Origin: Eledone cirrhosa
Lineage: Eukaryota
NCBI GenBank assembly: GCA_964016885.1
Contig: OZ024744.1
Span: 87,854,001 to 87,918,000 of the forward strand
Reading direction: 5' to 3'
Length of the DNA stretch: 64,000 nucleotides
This document shows positions 6,272 to 57,757 of the stretch, in pieces (within the stretch, counting starts at the first letter, position 1; the number at the start of each line of letters is the position of its first letter). The notes beneath the pieces are model-generated. The model saw only the letters and a program-made list of their open reading frames with translations, was not told the DNA's origin and searched no databases. Made by a program: the position numbers and the translations under genes.

Positions 6272-9200
6272 CAAAAAGAGTGAAATCTCCGAGGGTCACT
6301 CGTGGCGAAAACCACACAAAAAAGACCAAGGCCTCCCTGACCACCAGGGCAAGCACCCTCTCTCAGTTTTCCCACTCCTCAGTCTACAGGCGCATACTCA
6401 GGGCGGGCCCGTTCACTCGGACCAGACTCGCCACTTTCACCCAACTTTCAACAAACTTACTAGAAGACAGCACTTGCCTCACCACCCTGATTTTCTTCTT
6501 CAAGTGACACTTGAAAAAGTTAATCAGGGATTGGCCGAAAAGGAAAGTGTCCGTCTTCAAACCTTTCAACCTTGTCCATCACACAATCTCTTCGCCTTGG
6601 CCACCAGGCAGATGAAAACTGCCTGCCCTTCCTCCACTTTAAAGGAGGAAGGCGGGGTTATCTGCACAATGGACTCAGTCGTAAACCGGATCCGTCCTAC
6701 ATGCAACAGCGACTGTTCGACATAGCCCCACAAGTCAGCAATCCTCGGGCACTGAACGAGTGCGTGCAGGACGGTTTAGCCGCCCTGCGCGCATCTCGGA
6801 TAGGCTCAGGTGACAGCACCTCCGTGCTTGTAGAGTTCATCCCAACCGGCAACGCTCCCCGGTAGCATTGCCAGGCCAGGGATTTCTGGAAGATGTCCAT
6901 AGGTCCGGTCTGAAAGTTCTCTTGAGGAGAGCGAACAGCTGATCATCTTCGACGTCCAGGGTATCCCCGAGAAAGTCGTCGCTCTTTCCCTCCACTAGCC
7001 CTCTATAGAACGCCGAGGTGGATGTTCCACCGATACTACTGCCAGCTGGTAGAGGGCGGTGAGCACTTGGAGACATTCCAGCTTCCAAGTGCTATGCCTC
7101 GGTCTTTTCCTGATACAGGACTGCAGCTCCGTCAAGGAGACGAGCTGGGGAAAAGCGCGTCTGGCAAACGGCGACCACAACTGTTCACCGTCAAGGAAGC
7201 ACCAGAGATGTTGCAGTCTAAGCACATGTTTGCGCATCATCAGCCACGGCATAACTAGTCCTCCACGCAACTTGTGCTGACAGCAGATGGATCGTCAGAC
7301 GTTGGGAGCACGTGCCTCCGACAGCACCACGGTGACGTTGTCGGCGTAGGCCGACACGGATTTCCTGCATCCCAGTTCGCGAGGGACCCCCCTCATAGTC
7401 TCCAATGTGTGCAGTAACGGCTCGAAGGCCAGTACGTACAGAAGGGACGAGAGGGGAAACCCTGGCGGACCGAGCGCATGATGCTGAACGGCTGCAACAG
7501 GTGACCATTCACCCTCACAATCGAGCAGTTGTCGCTATACATCGCAACGATCCAGCCCTTAAAACAGGCCCGAAGCCGGCCGCCTCGAGTACCACAGACA
7601 GGTACCGATAGTCGACCCTATCAAATGCGTTAGAATGATCCAAGTTGATAAGGGCTCTACCCGTGCCAAGTTCCTTAACTACTCCCAATAAGATGTATCG
7701 CATGAGATGGAGGTTTTCGTGGATGGATCTGTCCAGAATGGCGCATGTCTGCGCCTCTCCCACCATATCACTGAAGACAAGCGTCGAACTCTTTGCTAAC
7801 ACCTTCGCCAAAATCTTGAACTCTGCGTTTAGCAAAGTTATGGGCCTGAAGTTGTCTATAGCTTCCCCCTTTTTCGGGTCTTTTCTCAGCAGCGCCACCG
7901 CTTCCCGCCTCACAACACTGGGAATGCTCCTGTTCTGCTGTCAGTTGCAGCAGACATCTGCCAAGAGGTCGCCGAACAAGTCTGGCATGTACGCATAAAG
8001 GTCGTAGGCCAGACCTTCCAAACCTGGTGATTTACCCCTTGTGGAGTCAGAGATCGCTTCCTGTATTTCACCTGCTGTTATCGGCCTTTCGCAGCACTGC
8101 GCTGCGGTCGTCTAGAGCCGCGGCAGTCCGTCGAAGTATGCACCGAAGTCCTTACTCCGAACCGGCCCGCCGCCGCCCCCGAAAAATTGAGCAAAGTGCT
8201 GTTGAAAAGCCGCACACATCTGCTCGGGTTCGAGCAGCATGCGCCCGTTTTGATCAGGCACAGACCGAATTGTGGCTTTCTTGTCACGTCGCACCTCCAC
8301 CACCCAGGCCCATTGAACGGCTGTCGTCCCTTCATGACTCAGAGCACGCAGTCTAGCTCTGACAACGCACCATTCATGCTTTGCGTTGATAAATTGGTCG
8401 AGTGCCAATGACGCCACTTCTAGCTTTCTAACTAGCTCTCCCTCTACTCTATTGTCCTCAATCACTACTCCTTTGCTAAACCTTATCGATTGTACTCTAA
8501 TAGCCCTTTTCAGGGTAAACCACCACCTGTTGATGTCGATCGTACCCGTTAACGCCCGCTTAACTAATTCGCTAATCCGGTCCCTGTAAGCTTTGCGCGC
8601 CGGGAACGACGCGTTCAGCTTCCAGTAACCGGGCCCTTGCCTATGGAGTCTATCTAAGTCAACTTCACAGATCACAAATTTGTGGTCCGTGTAGCCGACT
8701 ACATTGAATTGTGGACAACCTACACTAGCCTTATCTGTTTCCCTACAGAATACCCTATCTAAATACGATCTGGATGATGGATGCGGTTTGCCCATGTCCA
8801 CATTGGCACATTCGGATAATCCAGTCTATACCTGTCAGACAGTTCAAACCCTCTGAGCAGGTTGTTGAGGCTTTTACACCCTCCTCCTCTGTCTACTCGC
8901 CCCACATAATCCCAGCGTGCATCTAAGATACCGTTCCAGTCGCCCACTAACACTAATGAGCGGGACGTTCCAAGAAAGCTCTCTAGACGTCTGAAGAAAT
9001 CTGGCCGTCCTGTTCCTGTTGTGGCGTAGACAGCTACTAGCCTGAAATCATTACCTTCGCTGCCGGTCACGTCCAGCACAACTGACTTACCTTCTGGGTC
9101 TAGGAAGATGGCCCGTAGGGCGAGATCCAAGCCTCTCCGAAAAAGCGCAGCAACTCCTCCCCCGATCCTGGACGGCTGGGAGATGCGTATATATGGTAAC

Positions 9201-55388: not shown

Positions 55389-57757
55389 TAATAAAACTTT
55401 TCTACTTTATGCACAAGGCCAGCAATTACCCAGTTCATTACTGGTACTTTATTTTATTGAATAATAATAAAGTATAGTTCATATATTCATTCTGTTACTA
55501 GTTTCAATTATCGAAACGCTGTCATTCCCGAGCATCACCTTCTAGGCTGCAGTCAATTATATTGTTATATTGATAATATGACCTTACTTACGCTTCCATC
55601 TAATAATTATTTCATATATATATATATATATATATATATATATATATATATATATATATATATATATATATATATATATATAAGTATGTAAATATGTAAA
55701 ATTTGGCTTCGTTTACTATACATTATCAATTTACTGCTATATATATTTCGGTGACCTATTCAGGCAGTCCGAATTGGTGTGTAAAAGACAGGTACACATG
55801 TTGTTGAAGTGTTTCACTCCGTCAATACATCGATATATCCACCTCCTGGGTGTGTTGTCATTCCTCCGAGGATGTGGAATCATATCTGTTAGAACAAACG
55901 AATTTCAGCGTCATAGGACACGCTCGTATCCCATTGGTCAGTTGTGAGATCATTTCTCTGTCAAAAGTCTATAGAAATTCTTCTGAGGTAAGTCAGCCTG
56001 ATATAGTCGTTTTTGTCAGAATGTTTAAGTACAGCTGACCTCCTCCATCGTGTTGGTAGTGGTAGTGGTTTTAAGGGGTCAATATATATATACATATATA
56101 TATATATTTATATATATATATATATATATATATATAAATATATATATATATATATATATATATATATATATATATATATATATATATATATATATATATA
56201 TATATATATATATATATATATATATATATATGCGATGAAATACCAATGATCGTTGGCAAATCACTGATGAGGGACTCATTTTATAACATGTAAATCCATG
56301 TGCAACCATGCAGTATTCTTCTCCCCATATTTTTCATATATATATATATATATATATATATATATATATATAACAATATATTTAGAAACACACAGATACA
56401 TGCGGACACACACATATACATGAATGCATCCGCACCCAACCATGAGTTAAGGGTGCCAACTTCACCGATGTTGCTCAATGAATGACTGGGACAGACCAAT
56501 CCGGTTGAACCAGACTGAACCAGTATCAGAGTTAAAAATACATTATTAAGAGAGAAGAAACATTTAGATATAATTAGTAATAAAATGTATCATACCTAAA
56601 CTGCTCCTAGATTCCTCGACTACGTAGTTTCGTGGCATAAACAAAAACAATATATCATAAAGATATAGAGTCCTTGCGAGGTCTGCCGACTTATCAAGAG
56701 GATACCTCATTTTACTAGTCTCAAGAACGCGTCTCCACAACGTGAGAAAGAATCCCAAAAGGCGGAGGGGGAGATAGTCACGCGATATAACGGTCGAGAA
56801 ACAGAGCTAAGCCTCTTATAACCCCGAAGAAAATACCACGGAGGCGGAGGGGGTATTTATATCGAAGCCGTAGAAGAGGTGGTGAAGGAGGCGAGAAGTA
56901 TGAGTAATGAAAGCTTTCCAGCAGTCCCCACACTTCAAAGATTGCTCGACCAGAGGGAGTTATTAACAATATATTTAGAAACACATATATAAGTTAAAAC
57001 AATGAAATAAAAATCAAGTCATTAGAGATATACTTCACTGCTTTACGATCGTTTTTAGGTGATGATAATACATTGTAGCTATACTCCGTTATTGATCTAT
57101 GTAAGGTTAGTTACAAAATATCATATAAAGAGAATATTTACTTACATACATATCACTAGGTGTTTTCAAAAGCAATAATATAAATACATACATACTTATA
57201 TATATATATATATATATATATATATATATATATATATATATATATATATATATATATATATATATATATATTGCCTTACATCTTTACGAGTTCGATAAAA
57301 ATAAAGTACCTGTAATACACTGAGGTCGATTCAAGTGACTCCCCACCAAAAAATAAAAAAAACTGTTGGCTATATGCCTATATCAGAAACCATTATTCTA
57401 AATGCCCAAACATAGATACGCTTACAAAAAAAGTTCACTCAAATATATATATATATATATATATATATATATATATATAACGAAGGAAATGTGGTAAGGA
57501 ACCAGGTGGACCATAACGCACCAAAGTACTCAATACTTAGGGTAGTAGAGTGGGTAATAGGAACCAGTAAGACCCCGACGGCTGAGCTCAAGCCGTTTCG
57601 ACGGCTAATTCTTCACGCTTTTGGCTTCTAACACCTTCACCAATCTCTCTTTCTCCTCTTTTATAACCATCTCTCTCTTTAAGATTGGTTTACTCTCGAA
57701 CTGGATATAAATATATATATATATATATATATATATTATATATATAAATATATATAG

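Follow-up and report, generated by a model that had tools for sequence, protein, structure and literature searches.

A 64,000-nucleotide stretch of the Eledone cirrhosa genome (assembly GCA_964016885.1, contig OZ024744.1, positions 87,854,001 to 87,918,000, forward strand; hereafter the window) contains two side-by-side arrays of retroelements joined by (TAA)n tracts, at 6288-21473 and 26859-55470, with ~5.3 kb of ordinary microsatellite DNA between them. The arrays are made of two kinds of long interspersed elements (LINEs) and a short interspersed element (SINE). The Tx1-like LINEs encode an apurinic/apyrimidinic endonuclease (APE) and a reverse transcriptase (RT) and always lie antisense to the AAT strand, while the Dong/R4-like LINEs encode an RT and a restriction-like endonuclease (RLE) and always lie sense. 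Our reading is that this polarity comes from nicking of opposite strands of the microsatellite and that the SINE is moved in trans. We consider it probable, at roughly 0.78. An earlier interpretation made from the letters alone (the sequence-only reading) had described the locus as a nest; the tract-joined retroelements are there, but no element sits inside another.

The 13 (AAT)n tracts listed in that interpretation are all present in the window sequence and all have AAT polarity. Those at 40620, 45275 and 50891 begin imperfectly, and the one at 54401 is just 2-3 imperfect units. No ATT-polarity tract of at least four units occurs across 6272-55470, where a single 9-nt run is found at 22715. 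As had been claimed, self-comparison and translated searches place all seven APE-RT copies (A-G) on the minus strand, and the RLE-RT copies of three families inside 6272-55470 are all on the plus strand. The intact Tx1-like termini adjoin AAT, which is (ATT)n on their sense strand, in 10/10 cases (the 3' end of G imperfectly so), and the broken termini (A3', B5', F3' and G5') do so in 0/4. (TAA)n directly follows the intact 3' ends of the RLE-RT copies, imperfectly in family 3.

Two LINE lineages and their microsatellite junctions

Junctions were scored genome-wide in sets of the 30 best genomic loci for each element end, each set including the window copy. At least four ATT units are found at the full-length 5' ends of 30/30 D-type, 30/30 F-type and 26/30 C-type Tx1-like copies (86/90 in total), against a background of 0.14% at random points; the other C-type junctions are two imperfect tracts and two without a tract. 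The 3' junctions of D lie in a tract in 30/30 copies, and a tract also borders 8/14 of the 5'-truncated Tx1 copies. The control was a LINE with an (ATT)n tail that is putatively CR1/L2-like by its motifs (L252:1879-3332; L350-L374). Among the 21 scorable of its 25 loci, a tract is present at the 3' end in 11 and at the 5' end in none, and its 5' ends differ from those of the truncated Tx1 copies (p = 1e-4). Because nearly all Tx1-like 5' ends stand on ATT and no 5' end of the ATT-tailed CR1-like LINE does, the repeat is a target of the Tx1-like LINE and not a tail alone. Tx1 copies mostly lacking (ATT)n at their 5' junctions, the outcome that the sequence-only reading had set against itself, were not what we found. 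The Dong-like LINEs also have two-sided tracts: 30/30 5' ends of family 1 (Dong1) and 27/30 3' ends of family 2 (Dong2) lie in (TAA)n, as do the 5' ends of truncated copies of Dong2 (8/10) and Dong1 (15/21).

Polarity was scored in a blind sample of the 3.0-Gb genome (80 stretches of 10 kb from 16 contigs, 800 kb). Relative to AAT, Tx1 is antisense in 13/13 cases, Dong is sense in 14/15 and the SINE is antisense in 10/13. Random orientation elsewhere, a second outcome that the sequence-only reading had set against itself, is not seen. The sole antisense Dong match (L147:7683-8155) is an inverted piece that lies beside a 3' piece in sense orientation, both of one family. The sample holds 40 merged AAT tracts, 30 of which touch Tx1, Dong or the SINE, 11 of them on both sides. 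Tx1-like DNA accounts for 3.9% of the sample and Dong DNA for 0.9%.

The Tx1-like LINE is best represented in the window by copy D (26911-32942, minus strand), which is full length at 6032 nt. Its second open reading frame (ORF2; 27174-30590) is open and carries the Pfam domains Exo_endo_phos, RVT_1 and zf-RVT, that is, APE, RT and zinc finger; ORF1 is frameshifted in D. The best solved relative of ORF2 is human L1 ORF2p (E = 1e-52, with R2 at E = 1e-21), and the APE catalytic motifs align. ORF1 contains a CX2CX4HX4C zinc knuckle and, over the 593 codons examined, is open in 24/30 copies. In the full-length copies that were fetched, both ORFs are open in 7/7 and a tract lies on each side in 7/7. 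Sequence-specific insertion into a repeated target, a Tx1-clade trait, is seen at 5' junctions, at 3' junctions and on both sides of single copies. The sense-strand target is (ATT)n and not the (TC)n or (TTC)n of Kibi and Koshi.

Among named homologues, the one nearest to the APE-RT protein comes from Argonauta hians (74% identity). In a quick maximum-likelihood RT tree of 47 rows, from which two TX1-named rows were dropped for short coverage and which held no Tx1L, Kibi, Koshi or mammalian L1 references, the protein falls in a 37-row group (SH-aLRT 94) that includes TX1-named, Xenopus and Capsaspora proteins; Dong and the remaining host LINEs lie outside it. Within this group it belongs to a clade of 11 rows (SH-aLRT 100) with Argonauta and unnamed proteins, at an open fork relative to the single retained TX1-named Stylophora protein. 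The proteins of its sister clade are 43-46% identical and have no family name. Named Tx1L, Kibi, Koshi, Dong and R4 sequences were not found among the homologue matches listed, and a metagenome scan gave 80 loci with best segments 23-32% identical, one reaching 42%. Matches to "TX1" in PMC4176376 were mutant names and were set aside. By its domains and its place in the tree, we assign the element to the L1/Tx1 group, which belongs to the retrotransposons lacking long terminal repeats (non-LTR); the narrower Tx1-clade label is putative.

Over ORF2, copies E and F share 92-96% identity with D, yet they have a different 5' untranslated region and ORF1, common to the more divergent copy A. Read from the comparison of D, E, F and A, this indicates swapping of 5' halves between Tx1-like subfamilies. 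The young D subfamily also forms head-to-tail tandem arrays with ~6.05-kb spacing (L033, L034, L047-L049 and L056-L058). Tx1 5' ends adjoin a repeat that starts with TAATAATAAT in L275 and L310. That repeat is of an abundant, unnamed kind and begins with its short TAATAATAAT run directly after (TA)n (L091, L099, L123, L128, L148, L149, L155 and L163).

The full-length Dong1 copy (40663-45274, plus strand) has a single ORF at 41775-45200 with an RT, CCHC and RHD motifs and the PD..D..K motif of an RLE, and no APE, which is the Dong/R4 architecture. Its closest relative is R2 (E = 4e-30, with L1 at E = 9e-14), and no named R4 or Dong sequence was among the 120 homologues listed. A putative assignment of the plus-strand elements to Dong/R4 fits these features together with their TAA target. 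The tails of Dong1 repeatedly contain imperfect AAC units (6 and 5 of 14 identical), which is consistent with RNA-templated tails. At several Dong 5' junctions a short stretch of the element's initial bases is duplicated, which resembles template re-priming (L006, L012, L013, L016, L065 and L068).

A fourth RLE (R4-like) family lies at ~409-1110 (plus strand). It shares 30-40% amino acid identity with Dong1, and its 3' ends are followed by (CATA)n and not TAA. The same family is found at L103, L107, L123 and L155, and a recurring repeat resembling a 5' end also follows (CATA)n or (TA)n. This family is possibly a second microsatellite-specific lineage. L032 and L066 were considered as one site with Tx1 and Dong haplotypes. 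This was rejected, as they have in common only (TA)n and the 5' end of a repeat and no unique flank.

The SINE and its Tx1-like tail

The SINE is 191 nt long, lies antisense like Tx1 and is typified by the tRNA-type copy at 11578-11768 (minus strand). It has A-box-like and putative B-box motifs, followed by a Tx1-like 3' tail with a predicted CUUGU hairpin. An Rfam search of the SINE returned no tRNA or other match. The blind sample contains 86 SINE 3' ends, which extrapolate to ~3x10^5 copies genome-wide, and SINE DNA makes up 2.3% of the sample. The motif ATTAT directly follows the SINE 3' end in 70/86. Target-site duplications (TSDs) of at least 11 nt are found in 28/86, where shuffling gives 0.9 on average. 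The duplications span 7-20 nt and the insertion site is Y|ATTAT. At the 27 non-tandem TSD sites, position -1 is a pyrimidine in 26, and positions +1 to +5 are A in 25, T in 24, T in 27, A in 27 and T in 26. This site would put the nick in the A-rich strand, at ATAAT^R, which is just what (AAT)n offers. A copy outside the arrays (23895-24073, minus strand) has a 10-nt TSD starting with ATTAT.

The last 24 nt of the SINE are identical to Tx1-D at 15/24 positions in terminal register, a score reached by 5 of 49,124 control 24-mers. The same tail matches the Dong tails at ~6-8/24 and the CR1-like tail at 2/24. A 4-bp hairpin with the loop CUUGU is predicted in both the Tx1-like and the SINE tails, with compensatory changes in the stem. 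The stem pairs differ among Tx1-D, Tx1-B/C and the SINE, and pairing is kept. We surveyed 179 tails that were chosen solely by loop and terminal motif. In the Tx1 tails (64), pairs 1-4 hold in 61, 61, 64 and 60 (C-G, C-G, A-U or G-C, A-U or G-C). In the SINE-classed tails (110, including a few misclassed Tx1), they hold in 105, 106, 104 and 64 (C-G, G-C, G-C, U-A). Stem covariation across 20 hand-picked variants is 0.56, versus 0.27 +/- 0.05 in shuffles (0/500 as high), and is above all slid controls. Pol III A and B boxes, a 3' end shared with a LINE, TSDs and high copy number together are the features of a tRNA-derived SINE with a LINE-derived tail.

At the right edge of the window a tandem SINE multimer (63331-64000, plus strand) lies in the opposite orientation, with an identical short spacer repeated between copies.

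Mechanism, alternatives and related systems

In target-primed reverse transcription (TPRT), the RNA tail is complementary to the strand that is nicked. On this basis, the Tx1-like endonuclease and the Dong RLE likely nick opposite strands. The Tx1-like APE would act at ATAAT^R in the (AAT)n strand, and the (TTA)n strand would be cut by the Dong RLE. RNA tails in AUU phase for Tx1 and in UAA phase for Dong would each pair with the primer, a staggered second nick would duplicate ~10-20 nt, and the tail would add units. Each insertion would turn one tract into two usable tracts, and arrays would grow. Tx1 ORF2p likely recognises the small 3' stem-loop with the loop CUUGU and so would mobilise the SINE in trans. 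The strict need of the Tx1-like LINE for a long tract, versus the single ATTAT that serves the SINE, likely reflects longer repeat pairing at the ends of LINE RNA and not the endonuclease alone. The AAC units in Dong1 tails and the one fixed phase of all full-length D and F 5' junctions (60/60) point to repeat units at the transcript ends, which may explain this difference.

The idea that the locus acts as a self-renewing landing pad finds modest support. Another Tx1, Dong or SINE end lies on the far side of the tract at 69/90 Tx1 5' junctions versus 22/40 random tracts (p = 0.02) and at 23/30 Tx1 3' junctions versus 19/40 (p = 0.016), but no enrichment is seen at Dong 5' junctions (17/30 versus 19/40, p = 0.48). 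In young copies the median lengths of the junction tracts are 27, 42.5 and 53.5 nt, and many random tracts are 15-18 nt. Among 30 young D 3' ends, 15 adjoin another D 5' end, so that repeated targeting may be supplemented by tandem duplication or template jumping.

The null result at Dong 5' junctions is one of several points that weigh against our reading. The genome searches yield the 30-40 best-scoring, that is youngest, copies, and a few loci resemble segmental duplicates. The boundaries of 6/14 truncated Tx1 copies have no tract, and some of these look as if a later deletion or the edge of an alignment had set them. The CR1-like LINE used as control is an older one (~84% identity) with approximate 5' boundaries. 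Given the fixed 5' phase, the RNA may encode part of the 5' tract. TSDs are unreadable for LINEs in pure repeats, and the values used above are borrowed from the SINE. A tract of at least five units holds just 1/86 SINEs, and the partner of the SINE could therefore be a relaxed relative. The hairpin has only 3-4 bp, its fold z-scores do not reach significance, 46/110 SINE-classed tails leave pair 4 unpaired, and the minimum-energy fold of 54 nt of the SINE did not form it. The 20 variants behind the covariation were hand-picked, and their relatedness inflates it.

The fixed 5' phase could also mean that the tracts are encoded by the elements at both ends, as a tail and a read-through 5' leader, with no target specificity and with arrays built by template jumping or tandem duplication. 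The head-to-tail D copies and the imperfect units inherited in Dong1 tails fit such an origin. We nevertheless find it improbable: 5'-truncated copies of Tx1, Dong2 and Dong1, which are unable to carry a leader, are still tract-bound at the rates given above, tract lengths range from 16 to 61 nt, unrelated Dong, SINE and unique DNA are found among the neighbours, and the SINE TSDs show ATTAT as a genomic target. A loosely ATTAT-biased insertion, with long LINEs persisting mainly in microsatellite tracts by selection, would agree with the ability of the machinery to use single ATTAT sites for the SINE. This is very improbable in view of copies that are 99-100% identical to each other and already lie in tracts in 60/60 cases, and of ATTAT itself, whose frequency is 0.26% per nt per strand and which falls for the most part beyond the tracts (972 nt in 800 kb). 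An assembly wrongly joined at repeats is extremely unlikely at this locus. Logan short contigs and RAD-seq reads included none that bridged the junctions of 11300-16000, but the same junction types occur at >200 loci on many chromosomes and in the blind samples too, and neighbouring copies in the window differ from each other by 5-30%, unlike a collapsed repeat.

The motor of the SINE is a separate matter. LINE targeting could be real and the SINE could still owe its movement to a different LINE, relaxed or extinct, such as an older Tx1 relative or an ATT-tailed CR1, L2 or RTE element, with the likeness of the tails a relic or coincidental. In its favour, ATTAT is all that SINE sites require while the LINE is nearly always in tracts, an ATT-tailed CR1-like LINE is present in the genome, and the shared segment is just ~24 nt. 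We regard this as doubtful, since the tail match is in exact terminal register, the same loop and compensatory stem occur in the SINE and in Tx1, the strand preference of the SINE is that of Tx1, its TSD lengths are typical of APE elements, and the CR1-like tail hardly matches. Our reading, with the SINE moved in trans, can be widened to an octopod-wide (TAA)n-specific L1/Tx1 LINE, made stringent by the CUUGU stem-loop, that drives the major octopod tRNA-SINE, strict in cis and relaxed in trans, and that together with Dong fills most AAT tracts. For this wider version we see the odds as even.

Microsatellite targets given for Tx1 elements in the text consulted are TC, TTC, TTCC and TTTC (PMC4494074). 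Kibi, Koshi and the crocodilian (TTCC)n/(TTTC)n Tx1 families are likewise APE-type, two-ORF, microsatellite-specific members of the L1/Tx1 group (PMC4494074; PMC3812793). Compared by their descriptions, their targets in fish and crocodilians are (TC)n, (TTC)n and (TTCC/TTTC)n, whereas here the target is (ATT/TAA)n in a mollusc. A (TAA/ATT)n-specific Tx1-like LINE was not found in the literature searched; one may be listed in Repbase, in Kojima and Fujiwara 2004 or in the PMC4494074 supplements, which are outside that scope. For Dong, the (TAA)n target is known from Bombyx, DongAg and the snail DongBg, so that a mollusc case already exists, and these are single-ORF RLE elements as here (PMC3812793). 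Dong-R4 elements in Octopus vulgaris are annotated as recently active, with 5 families and 1129 insertions, and active L1-Tx1 elements are also catalogued there, in the portion consulted without a target analysis (PMC13282606). Dong-R4 is also recorded in octopus by others (PMC9115989; PMC8967140). Relative to these accounts, which in the parts seen give no target analysis for octopus, we add three divergent TAA families and a (CATA)n-ending relative. With the present data (ATT/TAA)n joins the short list of targets of site-specific APE LINEs.

TRAS and SART are R1-clade elements. They are two LINE families that insert into one repeat, (TTAGG)n, in opposite directions, as here; their endonuclease sets the strand, and annealing of the RNA to the target aids priming (PMC7265360). 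Both are APE-type and telomeric, whereas in Eledone an APE and an RLE lineage share a dispersed microsatellite. Convergence of APE and RLE elements on one target is known from Keno (APE) and Utopia (RLE) at U2 snRNA genes, where both use the same site and flank of a low-copy gene and not opposite strands of a microsatellite (PMC4640811). The sharing of one target by two LINE lineages, proposed by the sequence-only reading, is borne out genome-wide, but it is less unprecedented than was implied. APE and RLE enzymes would here split a single microsatellite between them by strand, throughout a 3-Gb genome. SaTar MULE arrays are also linear, non-nested arrays of unrelated elements formed via microsatellite targeting (PMC5907723), but they consist of non-autonomous plant DNA transposons, while the present ones contain retrotransposons that are autonomous and show strand polarity.

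SINEs form the predominant class of repeats in octopus genomes (PMC8967140), and the octopus CORE SINEs are named OK, OR1 and OR2 (PMC4758252; PMC4824008). SINEU and Tx1-Mar are a known case of a SINE moved by a Tx1 element with a weaker target preference, as proposed here. They are tied by target and 5' heads, and SINEU-1 has no detected LINE-like tail, whereas here the tail is shared (PMC4494074). In ZmSINE2/3 and LINE1-1_ZM, an L1-clade LINE and a SINE share a 3' hairpin with compensatory changes, as predicted here (PMC3472496). A 2012 survey of 58 SINE/LINE pairs, as far as consulted, lists three L1-tailed SINEs, all from plants or algae, and zero Tx1-tailed ones (PMC3472496; PMC3747384). 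A SINE with a Tx1-type tail was not found in the literature searched, with Repbase, which may list the partner of this SINE, outside its scope.

A candidate motor can be named for an abundant octopod SINE. If true, stringent 3'-hairpin recognition would extend to an animal L1-group element, compared with plants and algae only in that survey (PMC3472496). The contrast between strict LINE and relaxed SINE makes it testable whether the endonuclease or RNA-primer pairing sets site specificity. Should the octopod-wide version be correct, RNA-DNA pairing at transcript ends, and not the endonuclease alone, would set microsatellite specificity, and the SINE would be the first animal SINE with a Tx1-type tail in the literature searched. 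The young copies with both ORFs open (7/7) are relevant to tools for site-specific gene insertion.

Layout of the arrays

The first array begins with Tx1-like copy A (6288-11562, minus strand), which has an intact 5' end, a missing 3' end, a ~400-nt internal deletion and frameshifts. An (AAT)5 tract (11563-11577; this and all tracts below are given on the plus strand) lies between its 5' end and the SINE 3' end, and an imperfect (AAT)n tract (11769-11797) lies between the SINE 5' end and the 3' end of copy B (11798-14824, minus). Copy B has an intact 3' end and is broken at its 5' end, body-to-body with a 3' fragment of Dong1 (14825-15439, plus). The Dong1 3' end and the 3' end of copy C (15458-21237, minus; both ends intact, frameshifted) are separated by an (AAT)6 tract (15440-15457). 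An (ATA)11 tract (21238-21270) stands between the 5' end of C and an internal Dong2 fragment (21270-21473, plus).

In the second array, an imperfect (TAA)17 tract (26859-26910) is found at the 3' end of copy D and an (AAT)10 tract (32943-32972) between the D 5' end and the 3' end of copy E (32973-38579, minus), which has a D-type 3' half, an F-type 5' half and an internal deletion at ~36025. The E 5' end is followed by an (AAT)7 tract (38580-38602) and the truncated 5' end of a Dong1 copy (38603-40619, plus). A (TAA)n tract (40620-40662) separates this copy from the full-length Dong1, after which come an (AAT)n tract of ~32 units with imperfect ends (45275-45369) and an internal Dong1 fragment (45370-45519, plus) that meets copy F body-to-body. 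Copy F (45520-50890, minus) has lost its 3' end and keeps its 5' end, which an (AAT)21 tract (50891-50953) separates from the 5' end of a truncated Dong2 (50954-53010, plus; ~40% amino acid identity to family 1, RLE motif present). A (TAA)24 plus (GAA)10 tract (53011-53111) joins the Dong2 3' end to the 5' end of a family 3 (Dong3) 3' fragment (53112-54181, plus), and a degenerate (AAT)n tract (54182-54224) joins the Dong3 3' end to the 3' end of a SINE copy (54225-54400, minus). The array ends with the 3' kilobase of copy G (54411-55389, minus) and a 3' fragment of the SINE (55399-55460, minus) with a short run of AAT after it.

Three of the joins, at 14824/5, 36025 and 45519/20, are breaks that run body-to-body and have no tract. 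The SINE borders four of the AAT tracts and had been left out of the element list of the sequence-only reading. Neither Tx1 nor Dong was found within the 10 kb flanking the window on each side. Just left of the broken 3' end of copy A, an 87-nt direct repeat (95% identity) occupies 5766-5852 and 6188-6274.

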